DNA of 64,000 bases from IMG/VR virus record IMGVR_UViG_3300020183_000007, positions 1 through 64,000 of that record; one strand, given 5' to 3'. Under the pieces are notes generated by a model, which saw only the letters and a list, made by a program, of their open reading frames with translations, had not been told where the DNA came from and did not search any database. Source of the DNA: a virus. Shown here in pieces: positions 1,174 through 35,500 of the stretch. Within the stretch, counting starts at the first letter, position 1. Every line of letters starts with the position of its first letter. Position numbers and translations under genes: made by a program.

Positions 1174-1174
1174 T

Positions 1175-1966
1175 TTAATCTCTTTCTATTCCCATGAAAT
1201 CACAAGCTTTTCTAAATATATCTCTGCTGATTGGAAACTTACCATCTGCCTCACTTCCAACACTCGATGACTTATGCCAGCTATGTCCTATAGAAATAGA
1301 TCCATCATAAAAAACCTTATAGCCTTTATGTCTAGCAAAATAAGAGCACCAAGTTTCTTCATAATAATGTGGCGTAGGAAGAAATGCTCCTGTAGCGTAT
1401 GGATACATCTTTCTATATTGCTCATCATTTGTTAGCGAATCCCAAACGCTTCGCCTAATAAAGTAAGCTGAACCAGAAACAGTAACGCATTCAACCATAT
1501 CTCTATATAAAATATCATTAGGGTCATGCTCTTTCCAGCCCCTATGCTTTGGATCAACATTGGACCCAACAATGCCAGCGTGAGTTATGAAACCATTTTC
1601 GTCTCTTTGCTTTGGTCCAAGAATATCTATAAACGTATTTTGCGAAAAAGAATCCATAGCCGCGCTAACAGAATAACTGTCCATCCATACATCAGCATTT
1701 AGAAGACATATAATTTCAGAACTACCTATAGCAGCTAGCTGATTACATGCAGCCGAATAACCTACGTTATCATTAAATTTAACATCATCAATATGATATC
1801 TTTTATCATTTGATTTTATCCACTTTTGCGTGTCATCAGAAGAATTATTATCTGCTATATAAAGATTCCACTTTTTGTCTACCAGATGCAAGTCGTTATG
1901 AAGACAATCTAAAAATCTATTTAGCAGATGCCTAGTATTATAATTAACTATACATAAATCAATCAT
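1175..1966 (-). CDS. GT2-family glycosyltransferase (WbbL/rhamnosyltransferase-like)
   Basis: CIVNYN, IADNNSSDDT, NVGYSAACN, LLNAD, VSGSAYFIRRSVW, YYEETW, GHSWHKS. Likely start is M14 (1966) of the 1175..2005 ORF. Confidence 0.9.
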   Translation of the reverse strand: MIDLCIVNYNTRHLLNRFLDCLHNDLHLVDKKWNLYIADNNSSDDTQKWIKSNDKRYHIDDVKFNDNVGYSAACNQLAAIGSSEIICLLNADVWMDSYSVSAAMDSFSQNTFIDILGPKQRDENGFITHAGIVGSNVDPKHRGWKEHDPNDILYRDMVECVTVSGSAYFIRRSVWDSLTNDEQYRKMYPYATGAFLPTPHYYEETWCSYFARHKGYKVFYDGSISIGHSWHKSSSVGSEADGKFPISRDIFRKACDFMGIERD

Positions 1967-2228
1967 TGATTGCTCTTTCTGTATCGGTAATTGCAGTGAA
2001 TGCATTCTGTGGACTCATACCAAAATCAACTAAATGAAGAAACTCGTCTTCAGCATATCCTATGGTCTTTGAACCGTAAAATTCAGTTAAACGATTAAGG
2101 TACTGCGCAATATTTGGTTGATTGTTTTTTTGTATTAGTCTCTTTTGAGAACTTAATCTACCAATAACTGATCCTATAGCAAACATGGCTAACAAGAATG
2201 CTGCTTTTTCACCATTCTTCATATTCAT
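1959..2228 (-). CDS. Hypothetical protein with an N-terminal hydrophobic helix (start uncertain; ORF open to 2336)
   Basis: AAFLLAMFAIGSVIG segment; packs tightly between its neighbours. Confidence 0.55.
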   Translation of the reverse strand: MNMKNGEKAAFLLAMFAIGSVIGRLSSQKRLIQKNNQPNIAQYLNRLTEFYGSKTIGYAEDEFLHLVDFGMSPQNAFTAITDTERAIND

Positions 2229-2442: not shown

Positions 2443-2641
2443 TGCTTTCTTCCTGATTATTTACTCTATGTATACTAATGCTGCCGGTGTCTGGTTCAAA
2501 TGTTATAAAAAAAACATTTTTATCATTTGCCGAATAACCTTCTGGCGGCGGACTTTCCAACGCAATCTTTTTAGAAGAACAACCATATATTTGACTATGC
2601 TCTTTATAGACTAGAATATAGTTTAATTTAGCTGCTGGCAC
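2408..2641 (-). CDS. Hypothetical protein
   Basis: 77-aa ORF with a GTG start preceded by AGAGG. Confidence 0.6.
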   Translation of the reverse strand: MPAAKLNYILVYKEHSQIYGCSSKKIALESPPPEGYSANDKNVFFITFEPDTGSISIHRVNNQEESNEQEAIVQEKN

Positions 2642-2708
2642 TTTTTACCTCTATAGTTTATATTCAGCGTATTGCCACAATAAATATCTTTTATTAAAGT
2701 GAAGTTAA

Positions 2709-2882
2709 TTACCATATTAGCAGAATCCCAGCTATAAATCCACTTATAATTGCTAATGCAACAGCAACTCTTCTTGATGCTACCTTAGTAGAGTCTAAGG
2801 ATTGCTGAAATACTTGCAACGATATGCACCAATTAATCATAAATGAAAATAAGATTAGCTTTAATATATCTAGGGCAATCAT
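2709..2882 (-). CDS. Small two-TM membrane protein (57 aa)
   Basis: Not in the ORF track; hand translation MIALDILKLILFSFMINWCISLQVFQQSLDSTKVASRRVAVALAIISGFIAGILLIW*. The ATG overlaps the thyX stop (ATGA). Confidence 0.65.
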   Translation of the reverse strand: MIALDILKLILFSFMINWCISLQVFQQSLDSTKVASRRVAVALAIISGFIAGILLIW

Positions 2883-3580: not shown

Positions 3581-3917
3581 TTTCAGATTCATCCTCTTCA
3601 AAATCTTCATCATCATCAATTGTAAAAATAATAAAATTTTCACTTATAGAATCATTGAAATCTTCAGACATTCTATACAGTAAACCTAACTTTTCAAACT
3701 CTTCACTACCAGGTTGAGCCAAATTAGACTCACCCTCATTCATTCCTTCTATTATTTCTGCTATGTTATTCAGAGCGTCAATTAATGATCTTTGTATCAA
3801 CAACAAGTCTTTGATTGCTAACGGACCATCTTTGAAGCAACTTTCGGAAAAGTCTTTTAATTCCTCTGAATTAATTATCTCAGAAAACTTTTTTTCAAAA
3901 TCAGGATCTTCGGGCAT
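3564..3917 (-). CDS. Highly acidic hypothetical protein
   Basis: 117 aa; about 34 D/E versus 8 K/R by hand count. Confidence 0.75.
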   Translation of the reverse strand: MPEDPDFEKKFSEIINSEELKDFSESCFKDGPLAIKDLLLIQRSLIDALNNIAEIIEGMNEGESNLAQPGSEEFEKLGLLYRMSEDFNDSISENFIIFTIDDDEDFEEDESENGESY

Positions 3918-3918
3918 A

Positions 3919-9235: not shown

Positions 9236-9620
9236 TTTCTAATCTAGAAACTTTATTGATTAATCTAGACAATTTTCCACTTAACTTATTAGTAGTGTCA
9301 ATTGTCAGCGTTTCCAATGAAGGACTTGCCTCATCTATATACCTTTGCAAGGAAGCAAAATCGTAGGAAATGCCATCGTCTATTTTTGCTTGCTCTGTAT
9401 AATCTGTTATATCCCCAATAAAATATGTTAACTTATCTAAAATAGAATTATCAACTTCATTTAAATGATTTAATATTCTAGAAAAATCTATCTTTAATAA
9501 ATTACTCTCTAGATTTTCCATTAAACTATTTCTAGGAGATTTAAATTTTGCTCTATCAATCTGATAAAGTGGTTCAATAATTCTATTTATTTTATTGGAA
9601 TTTCTATAGCTAATAGCCAT
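9225..9620 (-). CDS. Small coiled-coil structural protein
   Basis: 131 aa, overlapping start/stop within the structural operon. Confidence 0.65.
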   Translation of the reverse strand: MAISYRNSNKINRIIEPLYQIDRAKFKSPRNSLMENLESNLLKIDFSRILNHLNEVDNSILDKLTYFIGDITDYTEQAKIDDGISYDFASLQRYIDEASPSLETLTIDTTNKLSGKLSRLINKVSRLENGG

Positions 9621-16524: not shown

Positions 16525-19269
16525 TTAAGACCAATCTTCCCCTTCCATGTTTTGCAAATCGAAAACAATTCCGGCTGTTAAGTTATTTCTAATAATATTA
16601 TATATTTCTTTTGGTGAAGTAAAGTTTTGCTTAACATTTTCAGGTATTTTAATTATAACATATCCGCCATTCATATATGCAGTTGCATTTGCGGGATATA
16701 CGTCCCAGTGAGACAGAATTTCAGGAACTTCATTAACTATATCTGAATTTTCTATATCAGCCCGAATCCCACCACCCCTTAATCTAAGGTCGGACAGTTT
16801 AGGCTTAACTTTATTTGGGTTGTTAGTAACATATATTATTGCTATGCAAAGCGCAAATGGATCGTAGTCTATGGATGTTTCATCAAAAATAGTAGAACTA
16901 TATGTAAAATTAATCAAATTTGGATATTGAAATTCAGTTATTTTTTCATAGCTAAATACATTTACCTCAGATTGATTAGGTGTGTTTTTCTTATATATAT
17001 TTCGTGGTGTCAGATATATATACATAGGTTTATCAAACTGTACACTGTCAGAATTTAAGAATGGATTCAAAGGTATAGGGTCTCCATTAATTTGTCTGAC
17101 TAAAGAATTTTTATTTACAGTTGAATAATTTACTTTAATTAAAGATGGATCACTTGGAATTATTCGTTTTTTAAATTTTATTAATCCATTATCACAATCT
17201 ACATCTAATATAAGAGAGTCCTCAACTTTTACCCAAGCTGATGTTACACTTGCCCTAGTATACACTTCTACTTGTTGGCGGACTATTCCACCTATCGACT
17301 GCATATAGTCAGTTTTGTGATTCCAACTTAAAATTGGAGTTTTTCTTAATTTAATTGATTTATTATCAACAACTATAGGATGTTCATTAGATATATCATA
17401 ATATCCATATCCATATATTTTTGACCAAGAAACTCCCGGTAGATCCATGGTGGAGTATTCGGCTAACATTTCTTGCCCAGAATATATTGACTTCCAATCA
17501 GTATATTGGATAAGGGAATCAATTTTTACCTTTTTATTAAAAGAACCATTTGTCACCGGCAATTCCCATGCATCGTATTTTGATAGATTAGCATTAATAT
17601 TATTAACTTGTATTCCAGATCCATTGTTATATTTAACTGAATATATAGGGGTTAAATACTTTAATGGAATTCTTACAGGGATAAACGTAGTGGAATTATT
17701 TTGGCCAACAAAATCATTATCTCCATTAGCACCATCCGCGTCCAACGCACAAACTGCTATATAGATATTTTCAAAATTAGTAAAAGATGATCTCGTATAG
17801 AAATCAATATAGCTTAGAGAACTTCCAAGCATTTCTTGAGTGTTTAGATCATAAAAGCCATACCTCAACCCATCTGCGGGCAGCTCATTAACTAACGAAA
17901 AATATCCGTAAGCAATGTCTCTCTCCTCCTGAGAAAGCGTTGCCGGATTTGATATTGACGCAGATATCTGCGCTAATGTTGGCAGACCGACTGGTTTGCC
18001 GCTCGAATCGCACAACAGCAATACACCGTCTCCATAATTAATAGAGTTTTTTCCTTCAGGAAACATTTGACCAAGACGATTCTTTAGTCTGTAACCGGAA
18101 GACAAGTCTATTACGGTCGTCCTAGTAAGGGCATCGCCGTAAAATGTACTTGAGGTTTCTAACACTACATTATTTTCCTGTGTCTGCCTAATTGATATGG
18201 GTGATCCGGATACAGTTTCGCCAAGGCTCACTGTGTCAGATAGGCTTAAATTTGCTAAAGCAAAGGTTCCAGATACTACATTGCTTCTAAAATTAGGAAT
18301 TTTTATTTCATATTCTCCAGTTGAAATATAGTCAATGCTGTTAAGATTTATTCCTGAACCAGAAGTAAATGTTAACTGTCTTTGATTAATGCCATCTGGA
18401 TAATATGTTAATCGCGATATATATTGTGTTTGTTGCGCAGATACTCTTTCTACACTTGAAAGATTTATTAAAGCTGGAGAAGATGGAGTGACATCATTTA
18501 GTGACGTAATAAAATTAGCTTTTACAGTAATTGTAATAGGATCATCATAATCTACAACCTGTGTTATATCTGGATCTTGCGCTAAAGCTAATACATTTAT
18601 TTCCGATATACCGAACCCTTCACCTTGACCTAGTCCATATATTGGTCCGCCCACAAGATTAACCCATATATATCTGGCACTTTCGCCAGATCTGCCATTC
18701 ATTGGTATCTCTATATTTCCGGTTGCAGCAGAGAGATCTAGCGCCTCGATATTCGGATAGTGAAATATATTTGAAGAAAAAGAAGAATGCCAACCGAAAG
18801 AAATAGCCTTATAATTCCTCCATCTAATATCCTGATCTGGAACTATAATAATTTTTTCAATACCAATAATAGATTGTGGTATCTCGAAAAATATTACATC
18901 AGAGGCAGAACTTGGACCGGCTACTCCTGTAAATGTTGTTTTTCTATATACTTTTCCAGTATTAATATCTGGGGCTAAACCCATCTCTTCAACCTTTTGT
19001 ATATATTTCCTAATATCTTCAGACGCAAAGGACTTCCAACTTTCAAACAAACTATTATTAGTCGTTTTTAAGTTCAACCAATATTTAGCTAAATACCATT
19101 TAGTTTCACTATCAACCTTACCATCAATATATCTCTGATTATTTGATATCTGAAAAGATCTAACAGCAGACGCAGTCGAAGAACCATAATCGCCATCTAT
19201 TGCTTTTGAATAGAAGCCCGAGGCACCGAGCGTATATTGTATGTATTTGACATATTCATGTGTTGCCAT
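16525..19269 (-). CDS. Baseplate/fibre protein with an N-terminal peptidoglycan-binding (PG_binding_1) domain
   Basis: VKYIQYTL...IDGDYGSSTASAVRSFQ...IDGKVDSET is the PG_binding_1 pattern. Confidence 0.75.
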   Translation of the reverse strand: MATHEYVKYIQYTLGASGFYSKAIDGDYGSSTASAVRSFQISNNQRYIDGKVDSETKWYLAKYWLNLKTTNNSLFESWKSFASEDIRKYIQKVEEMGLAPDINTGKVYRKTTFTGVAGPSSASDVIFFEIPQSIIGIEKIIIVPDQDIRWRNYKAISFGWHSSFSSNIFHYPNIEALDLSAATGNIEIPMNGRSGESARYIWVNLVGGPIYGLGQGEGFGISEINVLALAQDPDITQVVDYDDPITITVKANFITSLNDVTPSSPALINLSSVERVSAQQTQYISRLTYYPDGINQRQLTFTSGSGINLNSIDYISTGEYEIKIPNFRSNVVSGTFALANLSLSDTVSLGETVSGSPISIRQTQENNVVLETSSTFYGDALTRTTVIDLSSGYRLKNRLGQMFPEGKNSINYGDGVLLLCDSSGKPVGLPTLAQISASISNPATLSQEERDIAYGYFSLVNELPADGLRYGFYDLNTQEMLGSSLSYIDFYTRSSFTNFENIYIAVCALDADGANGDNDFVGQNNSTTFIPVRIPLKYLTPIYSVKYNNGSGIQVNNINANLSKYDAWELPVTNGSFNKKVKIDSLIQYTDWKSIYSGQEMLAEYSTMDLPGVSWSKIYGYGYYDISNEHPIVVDNKSIKLRKTPILSWNHKTDYMQSIGGIVRQQVEVYTRASVTSAWVKVEDSLILDVDCDNGLIKFKKRIIPSDPSLIKVNYSTVNKNSLVRQINGDPIPLNPFLNSDSVQFDKPMYIYLTPRNIYKKNTPNQSEVNVFSYEKITEFQYPNLINFTYSSTIFDETSIDYDPFALCIAIIYVTNNPNKVKPKLSDLRLRGGGIRADIENSDIVNEVPEILSHWDVYPANATAYMNGGYVIIKIPENVKQNFTSPKEIYNIIRNNLTAGIVFDLQNMEGEDWS

Positions 19270-22200: not shown

Positions 22201-22548
22201 GGCAAAATTATTACTATCTATCTCAGAAGAGATAAATTTTTGAGATGATGTAATTCTATTGGTGAAAATATTACTTACGCTAATATCATTATTGGCAATG
22301 GTTGAGGAACCATCCGACCTCGTCAATATGCCAAATTCATCTGCGTACATTAATTCCGACTGATCAGAAAGCGAAATCCTATTTTCCAATATTGTTCCAG
22401 ATAGATCAAATATTGTGATATTTTTTTCTGGAGAAATTGGATCAACATTAAACCACCCTAAAACAACAGAATCTTTAGGTGCATTTTGACCAATCTTAAC
22501 TGATTTCTCATTATTGGAATTTGTTAAATTAACAAACTTTTCCATCAT
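19282..22548 (-). CDS. Large virion structural protein
   Basis: 1088 aa, N/S/T-rich, in the baseplate-fibre block. Confidence 0.7.
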   Translation of the reverse strand: MMEKFVNLTNSNNEKSVKIGQNAPKDSVVLGWFNVDPISPEKNITIFDLSGTILENRISLSDQSELMYADEFGILTRSDGSSTIANNDISVSNIFTNRITSSQKFISSEIDSNNFAHHYYVSRYFTVAQAVFSVITLNDYLDSTRISDVGIKIIDQYGKDYVDKDTNKPKYKILLEPFKTDYNLNDTELPYRILVFLDSTTPVGLKIIYNKFEVDEKGKRHNHQLRYTENINAVPMFKEVPEESFVIDPNYLGSNTFSIKKVDNRFVNTSGQSNIVKNGYQAIVPSKAIKDYRTYEVFNWRIVGRVRRALNLTQVNFGANRTVNACILYSGSVSGSNISPYVIYRLENSPFNLSNFNFENPLINTQSKNTKSHWLIDIDTVTIQDLSRFDIVFWSPDISITPLQAQKINDYITNKFGTLFLDLTNCPDAQRLFCGSQLQMVESSSATTASINSDSYLINSNKNGGWDINDNIFEKNYYGVFGSRYTRDLNPKTYKYFSNIVSDNSFVKVGPTSGSQKSIGAAISYSPAVDNLSKGNVIATTFPVMEYCNKVYSLSGSEIPVNDNNENTHAGNIETENVLPAIIEGPFKLLYNAVSYAMYSKARAQQSTSTISSLTNLVTDWNSSWVMYSDALDDSEKDDFEVTPISSSTFVYARVLTKNSASNNTSVLNYFKEKMSLKLPATQVSILSEVSVNDIDFFIEVTNPDVSIKDATKIDNNNSLTVNIPSSYYLHQINQPTGNTAHPANAALYAYTIKYSRSLSPISGMGPYTLLERPINSSSSRQLLSGFNQSSGFHSYSFRLKSSFVSYEGIDQPTVFQTKLNGELVYDLMGTIKRTRTTVVTPEPAIRTLRTSSIKSAIDDYDLLRAKSTSETSNVFPYTGDIDIHGQTRIWKQGWDSSGGSDKRLLSTEDAQAVGDYISSLYESNYYQLNPPAAPDIYQSPDRIEQRINRIPTLTEVVATTVPQNRIPTPTEVVATAVPQMTSSTNFRSLWVQQLNIGRVQLPGPGSTPFPIATWRYWINDGSLDGKDYNIGTVTKNSLSQYSLEIGRPEGDGVKILLIYPLMTLQQLRQKLGSTIVIPAEFLDRTAS
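19608..19705. repeat. Tandem 48-bp duplication (two copies, in frame, 16 aa)
   Basis: Encodes NRIPTLTEVVATTVPQ / NRIPTPTEVVATAVPQ. Confidence 0.9.
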
Positions 22549-25500
22549 TGTTCCTCATGATCTGGATGCACTAGCTCATAATCAGCTATATGGTTTGGCG
22601 TTGACCCAAAAATGCCCATTTGATACTGATCGTACTTTCTCAAAGGCACCCATCTTGGGGGCGTCCAATTGGGTGTTGCACTGTTATATATAATAGTATT
22701 TGAATCATTGTGTTTATAAACAAAGTTTGGTGTTGCTATAATATCTGATTTTTCCTGCTTATTTGATGTGTAAATATTGGGCAGTGGGGGACTCAGTTCC
22801 TGGTCATACTGGACTGTATCGTAGGACTCATACCAGTAAATAACATCTCCAGATATAGTAACATTTTGGCCAGCATTAATTTCCTGATCTGCCAGCAAAA
22901 TAGTCTTGGCATAGTCTTCATCTGCTATATTTACTCTTGCGAACCAATATCCAGGAGTAGCCGAATCTTGAGCTGTTGCCACACTTGCTATTTCCAACTT
23001 TCCATCAGAAGATGTATAAGCCGTATAATCTGGTGTCGCAGCAAAAAGATCCTTTAAGGTTCTAGCTTTATTCCAGGAAACACGTAAGATTTTACCCCAT
23101 GGCTGATTATTCCATAAAACCTGTCCGACTATAGACACTGACTGATCAGAGCCGGCATTTATTATTAATGAGGATGGCGCAGCTTTTAGTCTTAGTATTT
23201 CCGAATCTGCGATATTAATATCAAATGGTACAAATGTTACATATCCTTGGGTCTGACTATTGACATTGCCGTACGGAGTTGCAGAGCCAATTCCAGAAAT
23301 GAACACATTGCTTGACTGATATTTCTCTTCACCAGTGTAGGAATAGCGAATTATAGTTTTGGCTATACCATTATCATTAGTGGTAACATAGGCTGGTGTA
23401 GCTGAAACTATATCGCCATAAACATGAAAAGTTTGACCTGGCTTAAAATTATTATTTTCATCATAAGAAACAATGGTCAAATACATTAAATCATCTTGTA
23501 AGTTAGAGATATTTCCTGGAGACAAAACTGCTTTTGCGCTAGCAAAATTGTAATCTGTCTTTGAAATATACACAAACCCTTCGTCTAATGGATTTAACGA
23601 GGGCAGCAATGAAAGATCTATCGAATGACTATTATCATTCAATGAAGACTCATACGTAACAGAGTAGACTTGATCTGTATTTGGGGTAGAGCTAAAGTAA
23701 ACTGATGAACTAAAAATTTCGGTATTAGGGTTGTATACGTTTTTGTCAACATACCAGGCATTTCTGACATCGTAACTGACATTATACTTTCTGCCATATA
23801 CAGAAGGTGTTGCAGCGCTGAAGCAATTCAACTCATTTGTGGAAGTAGATAAATTATCAAATAGTACAACACCAGTGTAGGAATCTGTAACAGATATATT
23901 TTCAACATTTTGATAAGCTAGGTAAATAGTGTTGCTAACGTTACCGTAAATTTCTTCAGTATTACTAAATAAAATATTTCCAGGAGTTGCAGCGTCTTCA
24001 AAAAGAATATTTCTATATTCCTCTTCGCCTACTTTGACTATTATTGGGGAACCAGATCTTGGATATCGACTAATCGGCAGGGAGAAAAATCTCCCTGTGG
24101 CGGAATCAGTAATTGGATTGGAATATATATAGTATTCATCTTGATTTAAGTATAGCCAGCCAGTATGAATTGCTGGATTATTTTGCACTACTTCCTGAAT
24201 GTCTCTAGCTATTCTTACGTCAATATCTATATCTTCATTATTACTAAATGCGTTATTAATATTTGTAATTGAAGAATTTTTATCACTTACATATGGCTCT
24301 ATATATTGAGTATCAGATATTAATTGTATATCTTTTATAATATAATTTATTTCAGAATTTAATCCAAAAGAGTCTTTTGATAAATAAATTCTCTTTAGGA
24401 AATCATCTGAATTAAAGAATAGATTATCTGCCGCCTCTGAACTTTCGTAGACATTATCCAAAGAATCTATATACCCACTAAATATTTGAGGTGTTGTTTC
24501 AGAAGTGAAAGGTGAATACTTGGTAAAATAAATGGGATAGAAATTATTACTAGCTGATTCAAATGTTAAATACGATGGTGTCGCATAATAGTTTATTGTA
24601 GCTGAATCAAAGTAATCTGGGCTGGCAATTTCAGCGTTTGAAGAATTATAGGTTTTATATATTATATTTGGAGATGATGGGACAAGATATCTTTCATTAT
24701 CATCTGGATTTATAGCTGCACCGCCATGCAAAGTATTTATAATGCTAGTTTCATTAAAGTAAGTTAGACCAATAGGTTTAATATTGTCTATATATAGATA
24801 TTGAGGTGTTGCTTGAGGCGGAAGGATCAATCTATCTACAAGATCATCTATGTGCATAGAATAATTTTGTGTCCCCGATGCAGTTAAATTGTTGCTTTCA
24901 TTTAAAAAGAATGATGACGTAATCGTTTGAGTATTAAAACTTGCTAGCTTTGTTTCATATACAGTTGATCCTATTCTTATATTGGCATCTGTGTACGTAT
25001 AATTACTTGGAGAAGCCAACTCAACTTGCTGCATATAAGAAGGATTAGTATAATAGGTCGTGCTGGGAGTAGATTTAGAGAATCCTCCTCTGTAGTTTGC
25101 GGTAGCTAAAGACTTATCATATGTTTGTGTAACATAATTCCATCCACCGTTTGAGAAAACTATTTTTACAGAATCTACATCGTCAAAATTAATTGTATTT
25201 ACACTAGGCGAACTTGAGGCATTATAATATAGGTTGTTATAGATCTTATCTTTAAACTGAAGAGTAGATACTGTATACCCATCATCATTAAAAATTTTAA
25301 TTAAATTAAACTCTGGACTGGATGGATGATTCTCTGAAAATCTATTTCCAACATAAAAATCATCTCTATTTAAATAATTTAAATTAGAATAAAAAGTTGA
25401 TGGTGTTGCGTAATTAGCGTGAGCTTTAACACCTATTTCATAAGTTAAACCAACTCCAATTCTAGATGAAGTATTCCTATAAACTCTAACGTGGCCAGCG

Positions 25501-27635
25501 CTACTTCCAGATCCCTCATTGAAAATACCCCCTATAGCTAGAATAGTTCCGTCTGAAGAAAGCGAAACAGAATAACCCGATAGATCGCCAGCTGCTTCTC
25601 CATCTATATCGGAGCCTCTTTGGTTCCAGGATGTTCCGTTCCAAACGTATACTCTAACGTGGCCAGCGTTACTTCCAGATCCATCATTACCCGTAGCCCC
25701 TATAGCTAAAATGGTTCCGTCTGAAGAAAGCGAAACAGAATAACCCGATGTATCGCCAGCTACCTCTCCATCTATATCGGAGCCTCTTTGGTTCCAGGAT
25801 GTTCCGTTCCAAACGTATACTCTAACGTGGCCAGCGTTACTTCCAGATCCATCATTGAAAATACCCCCTATAGCTAGAATAGTTCCGTCTGAAGAAAGCG
25901 AAACAGAATAACCCGATTGATCGCCAGCTACCTCTCCATCTATATCGGAGCCTCTTTGGTCCCAGGACTGAAGAGTCATCCCCGCTGCGTAATCTGGAAC
26001 TCTCTTTAGATAAGAAAGATACCAAGAATAATCAACTTTGATTGGAGCATAAACCTCTTCAATGCCATCCTCGTAGATACCAGATATGCTTACGTATCCA
26101 GAAAAAGACGTTGTAGCCTTTTCTTCAGCCTCTAGTATTAGCTTAGCGTCGGCGTAGTCACCAACACCAGATTGATAATACTGTGGCGAAGAACTGGTAT
26201 CGACATCATATATAGCAGGGATATAGGATATGCCTTCTCCATCCATTCCGCCGTAATCCCAATATCCTTCTTCCCATCTAACATAACCTATATTTGAAGG
26301 ATATCTTTCGTTAATACTTTCGATAAGATCAACGAATGGCTTAAGGGGTTTGCCTGAAGGAGTAAACCATGGAGTACTTTTTTCCATATCAGAAATTTCG
26401 ATAACATCTGGAGTTGCGCCAAGATAATCTGAATCTGGTTCAAGACCATAAGCTTTCCATATATCCAGCTCTCTTCTTACGGTTCTTTTAAATCCATCCG
26501 TATGAGCTGCGGGATAATTTAATGATACATCAAGAATTCTTTTCTTGTATCTGGAATTAGACTCCAACAGCAACCTAGGAAGACCCACCCGTGCACCAAA
26601 TTCATCAAAATTATTTGGTACGTGCAAAGGTTGTTGGTTGTATTCGGTATCATTTATTTTTAATGAAGAAAACTCCCGCATAGATATTATTTGCTTGTTT
26701 GCCTGACTGTAATAATATACGTAGTCAGTTGATTGGCACCTATAGAATGAAGCCAAACTGTCCATCTGAACAAGTGGAACATCGTCTCCTGTAACCTTTA
26801 GAATATTTACAGGTACATCATAGGAAACATAAGCCCAGGCAAGCATGTTTTCATCTGCGCTTGATATATAATGATTAATATCGTAAAGGTTTAATTCATT
26901 ATCAAAATTATCAAGAGTCTCTTGAACTAACGCTGTTAAGAATTTTCCAGCTGTAGAACTCGGAACAAACAATGACGGTGTTGCAGGATTTTCTGAATCT
27001 GCAAACATATCTGTCCAAGTTGGAAACCTCTTTAATATATTTCTAGCGTGTTCGGAAGCAATAGCTGGAACTGGATCGTGTACCCCAACCTCTAAATAGA
27101 ATAGAAGACCTAGATCATTAGTGTTTAATGTTTCAGTAAATATTTCTAGTTCTATTTTTATCCAAGGCTTACAATCTCTTATGAAAATTATATTTGAATC
27201 AAAAGATAATACAGACTTTAACCATGGACCGTCCGCAGAGTCTGATTCATGCATTTGCAAATTAAATGTTGGAACCTCAGTTCCGGGAAGATTGGTGAAG
27301 ACATGTCTATACGCCAATACATCTATTTTTGATGTAGTATCAACAAATCTTAATACAGAAGGAGTGGCCTGCTCGTAAACAATTTCACCAATATCAGTAA
27401 CGTATAATGCGCTATTCGATAAAGGGGTAGCAAGTTCTGCGGTATAAGATGGAGAGGTATATTCTAGCCCAACGTATATATTGTCGCCTATTGTGTTTAG
27501 GCCATATCTTGATCTCACATAGGAATAATTGGTAAAGGAGTCATTTTTATATAGATTTATAGCATTACTTGTCCATGTGTTGCCGGACTTATTGAAGTCT
27601 CCGCTTTTTAAAAGTAACAAATACTGCTTCATCAA
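22545..27635 (-). CDS. Large baseplate wedge/fibre protein with an FG-GAP-like repeat insert and 15 Ala-Thr-Pro motifs
   Basis: Follows baseplate J. NNFDEFGARVGLPRLLLESNSRYKKRIL resembles wedge/tail-protein-I-type segments. Confidence 0.7.
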   Translation of the reverse strand: MMKQYLLLLKSGDFNKSGNTWTSNAINLYKNDSFTNYSYVRSRYGLNTIGDNIYVGLEYTSPSYTAELATPLSNSALYVTDIGEIVYEQATPSVLRFVDTTSKIDVLAYRHVFTNLPGTEVPTFNLQMHESDSADGPWLKSVLSFDSNIIFIRDCKPWIKIELEIFTETLNTNDLGLLFYLEVGVHDPVPAIASEHARNILKRFPTWTDMFADSENPATPSLFVPSSTAGKFLTALVQETLDNFDNELNLYDINHYISSADENMLAWAYVSYDVPVNILKVTGDDVPLVQMDSLASFYRCQSTDYVYYYSQANKQIISMREFSSLKINDTEYNQQPLHVPNNFDEFGARVGLPRLLLESNSRYKKRILDVSLNYPAAHTDGFKRTVRRELDIWKAYGLEPDSDYLGATPDVIEISDMEKSTPWFTPSGKPLKPFVDLIESINERYPSNIGYVRWEEGYWDYGGMDGEGISYIPAIYDVDTSSSPQYYQSGVGDYADAKLILEAEEKATTSFSGYVSISGIYEDGIEEVYAPIKVDYSWYLSYLKRVPDYAAGMTLQSWDQRGSDIDGEVAGDQSGYSVSLSSDGTILAIGGIFNDGSGSNAGHVRVYVWNGTSWNQRGSDIDGEVAGDTSGYSVSLSSDGTILAIGATGNDGSGSNAGHVRVYVWNGTSWNQRGSDIDGEAAGDLSGYSVSLSSDGTILAIGGIFNEGSGSSAGHVRVYRNTSSRIGVGLTYEIGVKAHANYATPSTFYSNLNYLNRDDFYVGNRFSENHPSSPEFNLIKIFNDDGYTVSTLQFKDKIYNNLYYNASSSPSVNTINFDDVDSVKIVFSNGGWNYVTQTYDKSLATANYRGGFSKSTPSTTYYTNPSYMQQVELASPSNYTYTDANIRIGSTVYETKLASFNTQTITSSFFLNESNNLTASGTQNYSMHIDDLVDRLILPPQATPQYLYIDNIKPIGLTYFNETSIINTLHGGAAINPDDNERYLVPSSPNIIYKTYNSSNAEIASPDYFDSATINYYATPSYLTFESASNNFYPIYFTKYSPFTSETTPQIFSGYIDSLDNVYESSEAADNLFFNSDDFLKRIYLSKDSFGLNSEINYIIKDIQLISDTQYIEPYVSDKNSSITNINNAFSNNEDIDIDVRIARDIQEVVQNNPAIHTGWLYLNQDEYYIYSNPITDSATGRFFSLPISRYPRSGSPIIVKVGEEEYRNILFEDAATPGNILFSNTEEIYGNVSNTIYLAYQNVENISVTDSYTGVVLFDNLSTSTNELNCFSAATPSVYGRKYNVSYDVRNAWYVDKNVYNPNTEIFSSSVYFSSTPNTDQVYSVTYESSLNDNSHSIDLSLLPSLNPLDEGFVYISKTDYNFASAKAVLSPGNISNLQDDLMYLTIVSYDENNNFKPGQTFHVYGDIVSATPAYVTTNDNGIAKTIIRYSYTGEEKYQSSNVFISGIGSATPYGNVNSQTQGYVTFVPFDINIADSEILRLKAAPSSLIINAGSDQSVSIVGQVLWNNQPWGKILRVSWNKARTLKDLFAATPDYTAYTSSDGKLEIASVATAQDSATPGYWFARVNIADEDYAKTILLADQEINAGQNVTISGDVIYWYESYDTVQYDQELSPPLPNIYTSNKQEKSDIIATPNFVYKHNDSNTIIYNSATPNWTPPRWVPLRKYDQYQMGIFGSTPNHIADYELVHPDHEEQ
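25483..25967. repeat. Tandem 168-bp repeats (~2.9 copies) encoding 56-aa FG-GAP-like propeller blades
   Basis: Unit starts (actctaacgtggccagcg) at 25483, 25651 and 25819; near-identical DNA. Confidence 0.92.
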
Positions 27636-27661: not shown

Positions 27662-28831
27662 TTAATAATTAGTTCCACCCATTATAACAGAACTCACACT
27701 TATCGCACCTGCTACTGGATATTTTTTAACTGTATCTAATGAGAAATCTGCAATTGGGAGAACTGAACCATCGGCTAACATTGCCGTTATATAGCATCCG
27801 CGAATATAATCTGATGATAACTTAATCTGCCTTTCAATTTCAGAAACTAATACTACATCTCCTACGGTTAATGAATTTAGATACCTCTTTACAAAAAGTG
27901 AAGCCTGATTTCTAATTCCACTAGCAAGATTTTCACTTAAGCCCATTGGTAAACTAACGGTTATCTCTACATTTATGCTAACTCGTTCGGCCATCCTAAC
28001 ATTAAATCTCACTCCAATTGGTTTGACAGCGCTAACTGCTATCATTACTCTTTGAGGTAAATTTGCCATATCAGTAGCTGTTTCTGGCACAATTATGACG
28101 TCACATGATCCAACTCCATATGTACCCTCCCTAATTCTAACGTCCCTAACTCCTCTAACCGCTAAGGCTGCAAATCTAATTGACTCAGCTGTACCTGGAG
28201 CTTTTGCTTTTACAGAAGCTATGATTCTTCTTCTAAAATTAGTATCTGATTCTGCGCTCGTGTTAGAGTGAACCTCTTTTGGATTGGAGCAAAATAATAT
28301 TACTCCAGCCGGAGAAAAAGCATTGTGTTTAGTTAAAGTGCTAACTGGCGCAACATAAGCGTTGTCTGTGAAATTTGGATCAACTCTTCCATAGGCCCTG
28401 GTGGATCCTTTGCCAATAATTACATCTCCAGCTAATTTATATGTGTATTGCTTTGTGATAAAATTAGATACATCATTATAAACTAATGTTCCAGACGGTA
28501 TTGTCACATCTGTACTATGCGGTTTATCAATAAAAAATTGAATATTAAAAGATTCACGATCCTGGCTTGAATAGTCGCTAACATTTCTTCTAGTTATACC
28601 ATACAAATCGCCTATAAGATCTAAATTTCTCCCGGATGCGGTCATAAGATCTCCCTGCATAAGGTTGAATCTCAGTGCCTCATACAAGTCCGACACTTCA
28701 CTGGTGAAGGCTTCAGCAAAAGCTCTAGCTATAGAGCCTGGATAAACAGCCGATATGCCTGCATTTTTTTGTAAACCATTTAAAACGCTGACTAATATGT
28801 CAGCTTTATTTTTTATTCCGTACATTGGCAT
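27662..28831 (-). CDS. Baseplate J-like wedge protein
   Basis: ASGRNLDLIGDLYGITRR, VTIPSGTLV, AESDTNFRRRI, GTAESIRFAALAVRGVRDV. Confidence 0.9.
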   Translation of the reverse strand: MPMYGIKNKADILVSVLNGLQKNAGISAVYPGSIARAFAEAFTSEVSDLYEALRFNLMQGDLMTASGRNLDLIGDLYGITRRNVSDYSSQDRESFNIQFFIDKPHSTDVTIPSGTLVYNDVSNFITKQYTYKLAGDVIIGKGSTRAYGRVDPNFTDNAYVAPVSTLTKHNAFSPAGVILFCSNPKEVHSNTSAESDTNFRRRIIASVKAKAPGTAESIRFAALAVRGVRDVRIREGTYGVGSCDVIIVPETATDMANLPQRVMIAVSAVKPIGVRFNVRMAERVSINVEITVSLPMGLSENLASGIRNQASLFVKRYLNSLTVGDVVLVSEIERQIKLSSDYIRGCYITAMLADGSVLPIADFSLDTVKKYPVAGAISVSSVIMGGTNY

Positions 28832-30226: not shown

Positions 30227-32569
30227 CTAACTATCTCCATTTGCGTATTGTCTTGGGAATACTTCTCCGCTAATCCATCTTTCTATATATTTAGCTGAGT
30301 AGTTTGCTACTACTGGCAAAAATACAGATGGATCATTGGCGTATACATTTCTTATCCACCTTTTTAAATGTTCTGCTGTTTTACCCGTTTTATCAGTATA
30401 TACGTCTACTGCGTCCTGAAACTTGACTCCGCTATTCATCCAACCGTAAGCTTTGTATCCATCTCCCCAAACCTGAAATTGATATCCATCAAGTTTAGGT
30501 TCTCCAAAAGTTGGAAGTCTTCCTGTACGAGCAGTATAGGCTAACCAAGCCTGATTTCTAGGTATCCACAATCTTCTGTCCACCAATGGTCTCATCTCTT
30601 CTACTACCTTATTACTGGAATTACCGTTGTAAAATAAAGATAGATGATATTTATCATTTATAATTTTATTATACGTATCTTGAGTTGGCCTAGTTTCGCC
30701 TGGATAAACTGAGTCCCAATTAGCTGAAGCTATGAGCCATCCCTGCATCTGCGTCTTTCCATTTGTATCTGTTAATTCATAGGTTTTAGTTCCATGCGCC
30801 AAACCAGAACTTCTCGTATACCTTGGGGTACCACCAGAATATCCAAATCCACCAGCACCCATATTAATCTGTAAAAAGCCTAAAGAAATAAAATCTGTAT
30901 CACCAATATAAAATCCAGTAGGCCTACAATTACTTTCTCTTACAGCTACTGCTGCCAAACATGCTGCAAGTTCGGGTGTGCACCATGTTTGGGTCAAAAC
31001 ATCATAAACTCCATCTAAACCTAAACTAAAATCCCATTGCCCATAATAGTTTTGATCTAACGAACTAGCTGTAGTGCCGGGGTATAATCCTCTTTCAATT
31101 TGACGCTCCAAACTATCTACGGCACCAGGAAATCCAGATGGACGCGAGGTAACACTGCCACCGGAAACATTTGTCCCAGAAACTGTCATAGCTCCACCAG
31201 GACCAACATATTTACCAGCTCTCATTCCGCTAAAGCTTAAGTGTATGTGATCTCTATGACCTGAATCAGCGTGAAAGTTTAAATATTGTAAATATGGTCT
31301 ATTAAGTTTTATCGCAGCAGTCACTGGTTCTAAATCATCAATTATTCCCATATCAGTCTTAAGTCTATCGCTAATGACAATTAGATCTGGGATAAGGTAC
31401 TGGGGAACCTCGGATAAAGCTTCTAGTAATATATCTAAAGCAGAACCATATATAGTCACATGATTTGGTGAACTATGAGTTGTTTCTACGTCAAACGCTT
31501 CTTCATTAATTCTTCCAACTTTTCTTATATCTATAGCTCTACCGAAAGTATGATCTCCGGGAATAAATTTATCTGGCTTAATGTATTTTTCCTGATCTGG
31601 ATCTCTTCCCGCACCAAGACCACCAGATATATAGTAGTTTTTTTCGTGCAGGAGTATTAATAATTCTATCAAAGATGCTGATAAAAATGCGTTTGCAACA
31701 CCCAAAGTAGGATTTTGAACTATTAGGTCGTCGCTCAAAACTCTTTGGGTATTATCTACTTTAGCATCGGGGAAGTAAGTAAAAGATCCATTATAGACTT
31801 CTCTAGGGTCTGCTGCCCATTCATTCGGAATATCAAATCTAAATCCACCAATACTAGAGTAATCACCTATTTGTCCTTCATATTTTGTTCTAAGCAGATT
31901 CAACCTTTCTCTATACCAGCTTTTTTCTTCTTCTGTCATTTCCGCTATTAAAGCAACATCCCTTCTTCCCGCACTTTGCATCTCACTAATACCCGGGGAA
32001 CTTGATCCACCGGATCCTCTATTATTTTCTAACGGATTTCTGCTTTCAGAGGAAGTAATCATTGTATTTCTTATAATTTGCAAAGAATTTTCAACAAAAG
32101 TATTGCCAATATTTTTTCCGGCCATACTCTTAGATAGTATTTTATTCCATGCCGCAGCTCCGGTTAGAGTGGCATTATTAGAGCCAGTAGGATCCCCCTC
32201 GGGGCCAACACTAAAATCTGTTGCTTCAGGGTTAGCTATTGTAATGGTCGCATTTTCGGGAGTGGTAGCGGATGCAGCTGCAGCTCCGCCAGTAATCAAA
32301 CCATTTAAAGATGCAGATACACTTGCATTCATGGCTGCTATAGGATATTTTTTACTTCTATTTAAAACATCTCCAGCCATAACTCCAGTTACATCAAAAG
32401 AACTTAATGTTCTTCCTGTGGCAGGAGGCGCTAAAGAAGCGCTAGTGTTTAAAACTGGTGATTTTCCACCGGGGTAAAAATCCCCATGTATAGTTTTAGC
32501 AAAAGATGCGCTATCAGAAAGAGATTCATTATTAATATTAAATGACACAATAAACTCCCTATTGCCCAA
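30227..32569 (-). CDS. Tail-associated lysin: M15-like Zn peptidase plus lysozyme-like (SLT) domain
   Basis: DHTFGRAIDI...HRDHIHLSF (M15/LAS-type H-x6-D...H-x-H); AVAVRESNC...LGFLQINM (SLT ES and GxxQ motifs). Confidence 0.75.
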   Translation of the reverse strand: MGNREFIVSFNINNESLSDSASFAKTIHGDFYPGGKSPVLNTSASLAPPATGRTLSSFDVTGVMAGDVLNRSKKYPIAAMNASVSASLNGLITGGAAAASATTPENATITIANPEATDFSVGPEGDPTGSNNATLTGAAAWNKILSKSMAGKNIGNTFVENSLQIIRNTMITSSESRNPLENNRGSGGSSSPGISEMQSAGRRDVALIAEMTEEEKSWYRERLNLLRTKYEGQIGDYSSIGGFRFDIPNEWAADPREVYNGSFTYFPDAKVDNTQRVLSDDLIVQNPTLGVANAFLSASLIELLILLHEKNYYISGGLGAGRDPDQEKYIKPDKFIPGDHTFGRAIDIRKVGRINEEAFDVETTHSSPNHVTIYGSALDILLEALSEVPQYLIPDLIVISDRLKTDMGIIDDLEPVTAAIKLNRPYLQYLNFHADSGHRDHIHLSFSGMRAGKYVGPGGAMTVSGTNVSGGSVTSRPSGFPGAVDSLERQIERGLYPGTTASSLDQNYYGQWDFSLGLDGVYDVLTQTWCTPELAACLAAVAVRESNCRPTGFYIGDTDFISLGFLQINMGAGGFGYSGGTPRYTRSSGLAHGTKTYELTDTNGKTQMQGWLIASANWDSVYPGETRPTQDTYNKIINDKYHLSLFYNGNSSNKVVEEMRPLVDRRLWIPRNQAWLAYTARTGRLPTFGEPKLDGYQFQVWGDGYKAYGWMNSGVKFQDAVDVYTDKTGKTAEHLKRWIRNVYANDPSVFLPVVANYSAKYIERWISGEVFPRQYANGDS

Positions 32570-35500
32570 CTCTTGCGGGCATTATTGCTGATTCTTCGGC
32601 ACTGATGACAGAATTCCCCTCAATTTGAAGCTGCTTAGTATATACTGTAGCCAAGTTATTTGTTACCAATTCCCAATTTAGGGTAACAGGATGGCCATTT
32701 TCATAGTATTCATCCCAGAATATAGTAGGCCATTCTCTAGTTTTATTATAGGTAGATTCTAGTACTTTATACTGCACTAAATCGTTATACAATTTAATTG
32801 TTTCACTATTGGATAATCCATATTTAGTATTTGTATCGAGTGTTATGGATAGTGGCGAAGTGTAAACTAAGCCTAATGCTGAAAGCGCATTTAATATTGA
32901 GTCTTTCTTAACAAAAAGTGGTGAATCTTGATATATAGAGTTAAAGAATAATTGTTTTATTTTTTGCTCTGCGCCGGCGCCAATTTGATTATCTATAAAA
33001 CATTTTTCAACAAAATCTTTTGCTGCCTGGACTATAGACTCTGGCTGATAATACCATACTGTACCAAGGATTCTATTTGACTCTGTAACATCTTTAGTAT
33101 AGTTTGCAACAGTATTTTGCTCTGCCCCAGCCTCGAAATCAGATTCAGAAATAACAGAACTCGACGCTGCGTTGTTAATTCTTATTCTTAAAACTACTAA
33201 TCTGTTTTCTAATTTAGATTGTACGAATATCTTAGCTTTACCACCAGGAGTATTGATTGCAGTCATTTTCGTTGATGGCGTTGAGTCATTACTATAGCTA
33301 ACTCCTAAATCGCCATCATTTGATGTAACAGTAAATGTATTAATTTCGCCAGAGTCTATTCCATCAAATCTGACAGTAAATTTTGCCCCAGAAATAACAT
33401 CCTGTACATCAAATGTGTCACCATCTTTAAATTTTATAACTTTAGCAATAACGCTAAATAGTGAAGGTTGGAGATTAGTTTTATCTGGACCTAGCCCACT
33501 TAATTGTAGCACTCTTGCATGAACTAGAGCATTCTCGTAATCTATGTATCTTATTAGATCTGTTGTCTGCCTTTCTTGCCAACCTAAACTCTTCAAAAGA
33601 TCGTCGCTTCTAATAAAAATATTTCCTTCTGGTGTTCTAACTTTTGTCCTTGCACCGAGCAGGCCGGGGAGCAATACTTTAGAGTGATGCCTGCCAACAA
33701 CCATACCCTGATTATAAGATAGTCCAGCATCCATCGGCTGACCATTCTTGCTAAGATATTGAACATAACATCCGTGTTGGTCAAGAACATTGTCTCTAAT
33801 CCATTTCCAACCCTTCCATGCCAATTGACCAACTATTGGCACAGACAAACCCATAGCAAAGCCTGCTACTCCGGTAGCGCCAGCGCCAGCTGCAGCCGCT
33901 GCGATGCCCACTCCGCCAGTTAAGGCAGTAGTCATTCCCTGAAAAACAGATCTGCTAGCAGAAGAACCATATTGCTTAATCACAGCTTCTGCTTTTTGGG
34001 GAAGAGTTGTAGCTGTTTGATTTGCCATAATATCCTTAATTAAAGCAGTAGATCCATGAGTGTATTGTAATCCACCAATCATCTGGGGGCTTAAGGCGTC
34101 GGATAAAGCATCTACTGATACCATTCCGCCTAAATTAATGCCGCTGTTGGATGCCATTATATTATCCATATAGAAACGTGTATCATTTCTTAGGTTTTGC
34201 ACAGTGAACCATGAGTTAATCCATGAGCTCAAAAACCATCTGGCAGGATCGTTAACGGTCACCAAAGCATTTGGTGTAATCGATGTAATATAGCCCATTT
34301 CTGGAGTAAAGTGATGTACTATTTGTTCAACTTCAAAAATGCCGTACATTCTTTCATAAACATCCGACAAGTAAACCAGGTCATGCGGACGTATATCAGC
34401 ATTCCCGATTATAATTAATTCCCCACCATATATATCTTTAATTGATTCTCTCAGGTGCGCTAACGCTATTCTTCTAGCAGATAGTTCGTCAGGTGTGCCC
34501 TGAATATTTTTTGCTATACCCCTGACTGTTTCCAGGGGATGCATTAGTGGATGCAGCACACCGAGAAATCCAGATCCAACGAAATTATCGTAATACAAAC
34601 CTGTTTCAACAGTTTTTTCAGTTTGACGCTCTGCTGGCGCGCCTTTGTCTAGGGCTACTGTAATTGGATACTTGCCATCTGAGACAGCTGTAACAACAGT
34701 AGAAACTCCATTTAGGTTTTCTTGAATCTGATTAGATATAATATGAGAAAATGAACTTAAATAATGCAATCTTTGGAATGATTGCCTAACTTCCACAACT
34801 GGCTCACCATACTCACGAGTAAACGGATTATCTACAGCCCTCAATAGGCTACCCTCTCTTCCAAGCGAATAATAAATAGAATCATTTAGAACTTTATTTA
34901 ATATATGAGCTTGCCTACTAAAATTACCAACTTCGGTGATAGCATATCCCATTTGCATCATGGCCAATTTAAACATACCTAAAAGACCAGAAAGACCGTC
35001 GCCTATTGCACTCATAATTGGCCCTATGTTTCTATCATAGAAATTACCAACGCTTTCTGATATTCCACTAATAAAAGTAGAAGAACCAGTTCCTTCCGAT
35101 TTTGTGGAAACTAAAAGCTTCAGAAATTTATTTTTATCCTTAGCGTATTCACCATAAGGATTTATAAAAGCTTCAAAAATTTTATCAACAGGTTTGAATG
35201 ACCATTGCCCCTCAGAACCGCCTCCACCACTTGTTATAATTCCCCTTTTACGGTTGGGCTTTAATACTAACCATGCTCTACCATAAGCTGTACTCCAAAG
35301 ATTTTGTCTAAATATTCCAACCATTAAAAGAAATAATTGTTTTGGAGTTTTAATTTTTTCACTTAGAGCAATAGCCTCTTCAGGATTTTTTTTATTTTCT
35401 AAAGCGTACTCTAATATCGAGTTTGTAACTCCAGACTCAAAAAAGTTTTCTTTGATTCCATTAAGAGCGTCAGCAATAGTAGCATTAAAAAATTGTATTA

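Follow-up and report, generated by a model that had tools for sequence, protein, structure and literature searches.

Modified virion proteins and adhesins

Virions of mycobacteriophages are glycosylated by phage-encoded glycosyltransferases (Freeman et al. 2023, Cell Host Microbe, as cited in PMC10568470 and PMC12582341). A mycobacteriophage tail protein is methylated in a host-dependent manner, the trans-acting modifying enzyme is needed for infectivity, and the abstract of that work describes no repeated sequon (PMC13445384). Beyond a few actinophages, post-translational modification of phage particles is hardly charted, and no tail protein of a phage was found to have a described short sequon.

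The phage considered here is an uncultured myovirus of ~180 kb, unrelated to actinophages, with a contractile tail and 169 ORFs in an 85%-complete genome; the window, the whole stretch of DNA analysed, covers 64,000 nucleotides (positions 1 to 64,000 of IMG/VR record IMGVR_UViG_3300020183_000007). It resembles the glycosylated mycobacteriophages in encoding glycosyltransferases of its own (three GT2 genes and a probable GT-A enzyme in the head operon), and the proposed substrates are likewise virion proteins. It differs in its candidate substrate, a baseplate fibre in which a strict tripeptide, Ala-Thr-Pro (ATP), recurs internally at ~20 sites, and in that the glycan is one we infer. The chemistry and enzyme would also be other than in tail methylation.

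In bacteria, dedicated cytoplasmic transferases glycosylate adhesins at many sites, as HMW1C does with HMW1, and Aah or TibC with AIDA-I or TibA. The protein described below is comparable in being very long, beta-rich and adhesin-like, with tens of putative acceptor sites regularly placed in its structure, and in that a single trans enzyme is proposed. The adhesin systems, however, use N-X-S/T or, in beta-helix repeats, Ser as the acceptor, and their adhesin and transferase genes are neighbours, whereas here the motif is A-T-P in an Ig-like chain with no adjacent transferase gene.

The tandem Ig domains of invasin and intimin (Big_1-like) offer a structural likeness. Residues 1363-1476 superpose on them at Z 10.7-11.3 with rmsd 1.8-2.1 Å over 94-96 residues, and neighbouring domains are similar; the Big_1-like fold comes without a family profile match, no Pfam Ig-like family being found on the 1696-aa sequence at E 0.01. 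We know of no A-T-P motif in invasin or intimin adhesins.

Among phages, a likeness exists to ORF162 and ORF163 of Bacillus phage 0305phi8-36. The N-terminal modules are homologous (E 2e-18, ~24% identity over ~300 residues), and both loci place this module beside a J-like baseplate gene, followed by a very long Ig/FN3-rich protein; the two parts are separate ORFs in 0305phi8-36 and fused as one gene here. ORF163 has one ATP versus 0.42 expected and seven TP versus 8.1, and no GT2 gene occurs in the 0305phi8-36 genome. The Ig/FN3-rich proteins in the same slot of 0305phi8-36 and of a Moorella phage are without the motif.

Gene and domain architecture

The ATP-rich protein is encoded on the minus strand (22545..27635) and has 1696 aa when read from the TTG at 27635. 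It is 100% identical to the database copy P0001, which has 1695 aa and begins MKQY, so that translation probably begins from the ATG at 27632, giving 1695 aa. The gene directly upstream encodes a baseplate wedge J/gp6-like protein (27662..28831, minus strand; phrog_6, E 1e-36), which places the ATP-rich protein in the baseplate module; a homolog also adjoins an annotated J gene in Bacillus phage vB_BceM_WH1. Downstream, the stop codon overlaps the start of the next gene (1088-aa product) by 4 nt, and the two are probably co-translated. From sequence comparison and models, the protein is predicted to join a baseplate module and a chain of Ig-like domains in one polypeptide. As a baseplate-attached fibre it would consist of an ORF162-type N-terminal module, a swappable binding-domain slot, filled here by three FG-GAP repeats, and the Ig-like beta-sandwich chain.

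The N-terminal module (residues ~1-560; 25956..27635, minus strand, as are all features of this gene) has ATP at residues 69-71 (27423..27431), 90-92 (27360..27368), 218-220 (26976..26984) and 407-409 (26409..26417), and family-level TP sites at ~398 and 420. Residues ~170-525 are homologous to ORF162, a baseplate-associated virion protein (tblastn E 2e-13 to 2e-18). The AF2 model of the module (m86edf77c09ef) is poor (pLDDT 60.5) and gave no match in a fold search; in this low-confidence model the ATP sites fall between helices, not at strand starts. Three near-identical FG-GAP repeats follow (residues ~570-730; 25446..25928; PF14312, 31 bits versus a curated cut-off of 23, residues 626-663). 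They are a lineage-specific insertion and lack the motif.

The beta-rich Ig-like chain (residues 735-1606; 22818..25433) was modelled with a mean pLDDT of 76.7 (AF2 model m82fa71f183c5), and the model resembles invasin/intimin, complement MG domains and S-layer proteins (Foldseek and VIA). It has ATP at residues 743-745 (25401..25409), 942-944 (24804..24812), 1018-1020 (24576..24584), 1216-1218 (23982..23990), 1275-1277 (23805..23813), 1412-1414 (23394..23402), 1452-1454 (23274..23282), 1533-1535 (23031..23039) and 1559-1561 (22953..22961), and STP or TTP at 855, 1047 and 1316. The highly conserved C-terminal tail (residues 1607-1696; 22548..22817), with a low-confidence fold, has ATP at 1634-1636 (22728..22736) and 1653-1655 (22671..22679) and STP at 1678.

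Motif residues lie in coil at strand junctions in the model (T at 11 and P at all 12 of 12 modelled sites, versus a background of 0.59), and the sites recur at matching places in three successive Ig-like domains, delimited from the AF2 model and structure matches. In domain X (residues ~1221-1346; 23598..23975), site 1216 stands just ahead of the first strand, 1275 ahead of a middle strand and 1316 ahead of a late strand. Domain Y (1363-1476; 23208..23549) is intimin-like (Z 11.3, rmsd 1.8 Å, 95 residues) and has LSP at the A-A' junction, SATP ahead of the TTNDNG strand (1412) and SATP past strand F (1452). Domain Z (1479-1606; 22818..23201) has AAP at the A-A' junction, where six orthologs have ATP, AATP ahead of the TSSDG strand (1533) and SATP ahead of GYWF (1559).

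Enrichment of the motif

Fifteen occurrences of ATP had been counted by hand in the original prediction, and exactly 15 are present versus 0.33 expected by composition. ATP is the top-enriched tripeptide of the protein (Poisson p=3.9e-20); a first-order Markov model predicts 3.85, and none of 20,000 shuffles exceeds four. Across the genome the protein is the sole extreme outlier of 169 ORFs ([AS]TP, p=2e-18). The near-variants, previously called frequent, are mildly enriched (STP 4 versus 0.64, SSP 4 versus 1.01, ASP 2 versus 0.53 expected). In its extended form the motif reads [A/S]-T-P-x-[aromatic/aliphatic], at about twenty sites along the whole protein. The codon variety noted earlier is borne out, and GCN-ACN-CC matches the gene 15 times, always in frame, which puts the signal at the peptide level. 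Profile self-comparison reveals no internal repeat ancestry that would explain the motif.

Conservation and lineage-specific loss

The motif is a family trait. Relatives share 21 majority-conserved [A/S/T]-T-P columns, and 84 family representatives, reaching ~25% identity, contain 937 ATP versus 43.6 expected. The T and P columns (0.83 and 0.89) are better conserved than their flanks (about 0.6), and the sites are conserved in >100 homologs. Sites turn over among homologs, yet each protein keeps about 17-22 in all, and insertions in the family are enriched as well (19 versus 5.8). Ser seldom replaces Thr at most sites. Thr alternates with I/V at site 223, F/M at site 407 and A at site 1485; the hydroxyl cannot be essential at these sites, and the I/V and F/M exchanges make part of the signal structural.

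Counts per protein are bimodal, either 0-1 or at least 8. Six homologs have 0-1 ATP and the same conserved blocks, at 27-30% identity, the level of ATP-rich remote members; no replacement motif was found in them. They are interspersed with ATP-rich sisters on the tree and represent at least three well-supported independent losses (at least four parsimony changes, two key nodes with support 0.998), all inside one 13-member sub-clade in which several nodes are weakly supported.

In these six proteins motif Thr is kept at 13 of 75 positions (17%), versus 134 of 223 (60%) for control conserved Thr (Fisher 6e-11), and motif Pro is kept at a normal rate, 46 of 73 (63%) versus 199 of 274 (73%). The Thr is thus dispensable for the fold, being gone while Pro stays. 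The ATP-less lineages show a drop for two residues only, T and A, out of 518 conserved columns; Q, K, N, D, E and H columns hold steady there, and no cis partner residue is lost. An intramolecular Thr-Gln ester or Lys-Asn isopeptide cross-link was rejected on this ground, no Gln/His/Asp or Lys/Asn/Glu being lost alongside Thr. That several lineages dropped Thr and kept Pro suggests, from these alignments, that an outside enzyme or partner acts on the motif Thr.

A second carrier and candidate enzymes

Conserved ATP sites recur in a second, unrelated protein (257 aa) whose gene neighbours that of the capsid; one of these sites has been relocated. The GT2 glycosyltransferase gene of the window (1175..2005, minus strand) is a weak candidate for the writer. 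ATP-rich relatives conserve the gene in synteny; its neighbours are DNA-metabolism genes (Dcm methylase, ThyX, RNR), and the enzyme may act on DNA. An ORF of the head operon falls in a Glyco_tranf_2_4/Anp1-like Atlas cluster by feature similarity only; it has no match to the PF13704 HMM nor to any Pfam family at E 0.001, and is probably a GT-A glycosyltransferase. ATP-rich relatives have both the GT2 gene and this ORF, and two ATP-free cultured phages have neither, a comparison confounded by great phylogenetic distance. No transferase gene adjoins the ATP-rich gene.

Possible roles of the motif

The best explanation, to which we tentatively give somewhat less than an even chance, is a structural A-x-P scaffold that holds out a Thr to be read or modified by a factor acting in trans, O-glycosylation being the most plausible case. 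The Ala and Pro layer would close one strand and open the next; the Thr layer would have a separate role reliant on a factor outside the protein, and where this factor is absent all motif Thr would decay jointly with Pro retained. Covalent modification of the Thr hydroxyl would be the likeliest role, with O-glycosylation by a phage GT-A-type glycosyltransferase as the leading candidate, and the glycans would cover the fibre and the capsid-associated protein. The earlier proposal of a Thr-modification sequon or docking site stands in part, in so far as comparative evidence favours a Thr-centred motif reliant on an outside factor.

The stronger claim, that A-T-P is a dedicated O-glycosylation sequon written by a phage GT-A on ~20 loop Thr of the baseplate fibre and the capsid-associated protein in widespread uncultured large aquatic myoviruses, is rather unlikely to hold in full. 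If true, it would be the first sequon defined for phage tail glycosylation, and the adsorption apparatus would have a glycan coat repeatedly abandoned by some lineages, which would also have a bearing on the means by which large aquatic phages shield or adjust their adsorption organelle. The family is a well-defined test case: hundreds of environmental phages share its ~20 conserved sites, and the ATP-less lineages form a natural "knock-out" set in which the scaffold is kept and Thr alone is lost. Were the Thr glycosylated, the same family would supply sequon, substrate and candidate enzymes.

A purely structural role is possible, if on balance doubtful. Here [small]-Thr-Pro would serve to cap or connect strands of the beta-sandwich and would be retained since Thr, being beta-branched, favours extended conformation when it precedes Pro; the ATP-less lineages would have relaxed or re-solved their junctions. 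The junction positions, equivalent in three consecutive domains, agree with this, as do the strong conservation of the motif positions, the survival of Pro, the most conserved position, in ATP-less proteins, the exchange of Thr for I/V/F/M at some sites and similar ATP-x-F strings in fibre repeats. Selection acting site by site, however, predicts unimodal counts and not a bimodal distribution with all sites lost in at least three well-supported lineages, and the ATP-less proteins retain fold-level blocks and control Thr columns. The placement of N-terminal sites between helices (low-confidence model), the lack of enrichment in comparable Ig/FN3-rich proteins of the same slot and the missing repeat ancestry also argue against it. 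If purely structural, the motif would be an unusually strict strand-junction signature that helps to recognise and model this baseplate family.

Non-covalent docking, in which A-T-P-x-aromatic is read by a fibre-assembly chaperone, prolyl isomerase or decoration protein whose loss would entail the loss of Thr, is improbable. It shares with the sequon the argument from Thr-specific lineage-wide loss, the lack of a cis partner and the second carrier, and the overlapping, probably co-translated 1088-aa gene is in its favour; but ~20 sites over 1500 residues, in helical and beta contexts, would demand many partner copies, nothing in the neighbouring tail genes correlates with the motif, and no candidate reader was found.

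Phosphorylation by a proline-directed Ser/Thr kinase of host or phage is very improbable. Phosphosites and acidic residues exchange in evolution, and in the ATP-less homologs Asp/Glu is the preferred replacement of motif Thr (23 of 75 versus a background of 0.17, p=0.003). Ser, however, seldom stands in for Thr, no Hanks-type Ser/Thr kinase (PF00069) is matched in the 85%-complete genome, a host kinase being possible, and to our knowledge proline-directed kinases are not a feature of bacteria or phages. Chance, composition or a DNA-level motif, for which nothing speaks beyond the small counts in other proteins, was rejected as practically excluded by the enrichment (p about 4e-20), the varied in-frame codons and the conservation across >100 homologs.

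The motif elsewhere in the genome

The ATP counts given earlier for other proteins are exact (718 aa, 2; 864 aa, 1; 420 aa, 1; 287 aa, 2; 531 aa, 1), with a total of 22. The 3718-, 1691- and 2231-aa proteins, taken in the original prediction as putatively ejected and motif-free, indeed contain no ATP, but only 1.32 are expected in their ~7640 aa and zero has a probability of 0.27. The motif had further been thought confined to outer structural proteins; the other ORFs of the window jointly have 7 ATP versus 3.24 expected (p=0.047), and in the genome-wide [AS]TP scan the proteome minus the 1696-aa protein has 20 versus 10.5 expected (p=0.006). Tail and baseplate neighbour genes in 33 related loci (178,923 aa) have 25 ATP versus 29.4 expected, without enrichment. 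The motif as a mark of outer structural proteins in general is not supported. The names 'neck' and 'second sheath' used in the original prediction are provisional, and tail-sheath families are matched only by the ORF at 59769-61031. ATP-x-F is also present inside ordinary-looking tail-fibre repeats of this phage group.

Enrichment of the Ala-Thr-Pro tripeptide

The tripeptide Ala-Thr-Pro (ATP) occurs exactly 15 times in the 1696-aa baseplate protein (22545–27635, minus strand), as counted in the original prediction, where 0.33 are expected from composition, and no other tripeptide of this protein comes close to it in enrichment (p = 3.9e-20). The first-order Markov expectation is 3.85, and none of 20,000 shuffles of the protein gives more than four copies. 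Fifteen of its 22 TP dipeptides are part of an ATP, as are 15 of its 21 AT dipeptides. The codons differ between sites, as had been claimed, and each of the 15 matches in the DNA lies in the reading frame, which rules out a motif acting at the DNA level.

The motif had also been thought to be confined to outer structural proteins. The ATP counts given for other proteins are exact but without weight as evidence, the window ORFs other than the 1696-aa protein having 7 against 3.24 expected (p = 0.047), and the flanking tail genes of 33 related loci have 25 against 29.4. On these numbers the motif is specific to the 1696-aa protein and does not mark an outer structural class. In the whole record this protein is the sole extreme outlier (remaining proteins, 20 vs. 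10.5), and the same pattern is found in three whole relatives. The lack of ATP in the three giant proteins of 3718, 1691, and 2231 aa, to which meaning had been attached as they were taken to be putatively ejected, has a probability of 0.27 by chance. For a single protein family the enrichment is genuine, and it is strikingly strong and deep.

A word-indexed search identified about 60 orthologs (34–86% identity) with 6–17 ATP each; matches sharing only the FG-GAP repeats have none. Exhaustive phmmer searching extended the set to representatives of about 25% identity, and 84 full-length proteins contain 937 ATP against 43.6 expected, so that conservation in relatives, proposed as a check, is borne out. 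All 15 sites of the 1696-aa protein fall in conserved columns. The family has 21 majority-conserved [A/S/T]-T-P columns, with T and P conservation of 0.83 and 0.89 compared to about 0.6 in the flanks, and one third of the conserved prolines directly follow a Thr. Besides these columns, at least 15 sites are shared within sub-clades and 31 occur sporadically, lineage-specific insertions are ATP-enriched (19 vs. 5.8 expected), and the total per protein is steady at about 17–22 sites.

Gene setting and domain architecture

All large ORFs of the window are on the minus strand. PHROG matches to a tail sheath (59769–61031) and a baseplate wedge J/gp6-like protein (27662–28831) indicate a contractile-tailed phage and rule out a crAss-like phage, the first guess from the giant ORFs. 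The record is a single 179,608-bp contig with 85% completeness (CheckV). The gene for the 1696-aa protein is directly downstream of the J-like gene, and at its stop it overlaps the beginning of the following gene, which encodes 1088 aa. The ORF caller used TTG 27635 as the start; the identical (100%) database copy P0001, of 1695 aa, begins MKQY at an ATG one codon later (window 27632–27635), which is more likely the true start. A 914-aa tail-module protein (16525–19269, minus strand) has an N-terminal peptidoglycan-binding domain (PF01471, E = 7e-10) and matches endolysin PHROGs, and is likely a virion-associated cell-wall-binding or lytic protein. The 3718-aa protein (32559–43715, minus strand) matches phrog_20474, annotated as endolysin (E = 8e-121), in five stretches, the best being residues 1292–1545.

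Residues about 170–525 of the 1696-aa protein share homology with ORF162 of Bacillus phage 0305phi8-36, as well as with the corresponding proteins of related Bacillus and Moorella phages; the vB_BceM_WH1 homolog is encoded next to an annotated baseplate J gene. Phage 0305phi8-36 (locus L057, 80597–88159) has split genes, ORF162 for the baseplate module (372 aa) followed by ORF163 for an FN3-rich virion protein of 2143 aa, whereas a single fused gene is present here. Three near-identical FG-GAP repeats (25446–25928, minus strand; residues about 570–730) form an insertion that separates the baseplate module from the Ig-like chain. This insertion is absent in most orthologs (about 1530 aa), and others have PF07603 or PF02018 instead according to precomputed annotation; the position looks like a swappable slot for predicted binding domains. 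The repeats are 60–73% identical to FG-GAP proteins from Bacteroidota (Roseivirga, Leeuwenhoekiella, T9SS-sorted proteins) and were perhaps acquired from the host, which would be a hint to its identity.

The model of the C-terminal 962 residues (mean pLDDT 76.7) matches tandem Ig-like domains, with residues 1363–1476 superposing on intimin (Z 11.3, rmsd 1.8 Å, 95 residues) and similar domains on both sides. Pfam Ig families do not match the sequence, a PDB sequence search gave no matches, and the N-terminal model is poor and without a match in the fold search. A relic of tandem domain duplication is rejected, the hhalign self-comparison of the family profile having no significant off-diagonal match (best E 0.24); a blastp self-search of the protein gave nothing useful.

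Location of the motif in the model

Where the model is confident, 11 of 12 sites have their Thr in coil and all 12 their Pro, compared to a background of 0.59. The sites lie between strands, at matching places in three consecutive Ig-like domains: at the A-A' junction (ATP/LSP/AAP), at the junction that leads into the T-T-x-D-x-G strand (SATPAYVTTNDNG vs. AATPDYTAYTSSDG), and at a late junction. N-terminal sites are placed between predicted helices at low model confidence. A simple "strand start" rule is not sustained, only five of 12 sites having a strand of at least three residues that starts within three residues of the Pro (p = 0.10); what does hold is the weaker claim of a coil position at junctions for the modeled sites. 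The Thr position shows mixed substitutions (T/S at sites 808 and 874, T/I/V at 223, T/F/M at 407). Coil at junctions and mixed substitutions together argue for a motif that is partly structural, chiefly through its Pro.

Lineages lacking the motif

Six representative homologs (P0170, P0171, P0177, P0196, P0198, P0228) have 0–1 ATP, and no other tripeptide takes its place. Their alignment to the 1696-aa protein covers the same conserved blocks at 26–30% identity, which is the level of remote ATP-rich members. A FastTree phylogeny places them all in one sub-clade of 13 members, in among ATP-rich sisters, with at least four changes by parsimony; support is 0.998 for two key nodes and weak for others. 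All six come solely from Logan/ENA assemblies. Three single-protein scans of viral contigs for these proteins gave no matches, a metagenome scan and a profile scan of viral contigs recovered ATP-rich loci only, and the deposited phage collection has only very distant homologs.

In these six proteins, Thr of the motif columns is kept in 13 of 75 cells, compared to 134 of 223 in control Thr columns that are equally conserved and not followed by Pro (Fisher p = 6e-11), the column assignments being approximate as alignments at about 30% identity were made in the fast MAFFT mode. Motif Pro is kept in 46 of 73 cells and control Pro in 199 of 274. In place of the Thr mostly E, V, and D are found, and acidic residues are over-represented there (23/75 vs. 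background 0.17, p = 0.003).

Loss of the Thr could in principle reflect selection acting on the structure of each site independently, with which the coil positions and mixed substitutions agree in part. ATP counts are bimodal, and the loss concerns all sites together, which is what a shared trans-acting factor would predict and independent per-site structural selection would not. Intramolecular cross-linking would need a partner residue lost alongside the Thr. In a scan of 518 conserved columns, T and A alone are retained less (T, 0.78 to 0.51; A, 0.76 to 0.60), with no change for Q, K, N, D, E, H, and S, so that there is no sign of a cis partner for an ester or isopeptide bond, and this explanation is ruled out. 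A global compositional or acidification shift is ruled out by the retention of conserved S, N, and Q and of control T columns.

The best reading makes the motif a structural A-x-P junction, which would present its Thr to a trans-acting factor, with O-glycosylation of the Thr as the leading guess. The modification sequon or docking site is still a proposal, but one that has gained real comparative support.

Candidate modifying enzymes

The genome contains three GT2 genes. The one in the window (1175–2005, minus strand) is a candidate writer, and every informative ATP-rich genome has an ortholog of it (53–66% identity) whose distance downstream from the baseplate gene is about 20–27 kb; this position may be mere conserved gene order. 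A PDB sequence search with the GT2 gave no matches. Its block (280–5976, minus strand) includes a Dcm-type cytosine methylase (280–1173), ThyX (2879–3643), and a B12-dependent class II ribonucleotide reductase (3919–5976). The GT2 may act on modified DNA rather than protein, and these DNA-metabolism neighbors weaken its standing as the obvious writer.

A 259-aa ORF in the head-assembly operon (genome 72525–73304, corresponding to 8525–9304 of locus L004; minus strand) belongs to virus-specific ESM-Atlas clusters annotated as Glyco_tranf_2_4/Anp1-like glycosyltransferase and has orthologs in three relatives (48–59% identity); no Pfam HMM matches it at threshold. Two cultured phages with motif-free homologs, both very distant, have neither the GT2 nor the 259-aa ORF. 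Searches of the 85%-complete genome revealed neither a Hanks-type kinase nor a GT-B enzyme.

Other proteins with the motif

Just past the window, a 257-aa protein without family match (genome 68041–68814, L004:4041–4814, minus strand) adjoins the major capsid gene (L004:4948–6006, Phage_capsid_4) and has 3 ATP against 0.05 expected. One site is kept in all six orthologs (34–60% identity); another is kept in four and reads DTP in a fifth, and the two most distant have it relocated to a neighboring insertion. It is possibly a capsid accessory protein sharing the motif.

In the complete 210.8-kb relative G003, a 925-aa repetitive fiber (101457–104234, L068:1457–4234, plus strand) has 8 ATP (p = 3e-8), largely from internal repeats (three NNSGxGATPTISI and two SATPTFxG), and an adjoining 125-aa ORF (104943–105320) has 3. 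Conservation is loose, the homolog of this fiber in the present genome (65355–67283) keeping one ATP.
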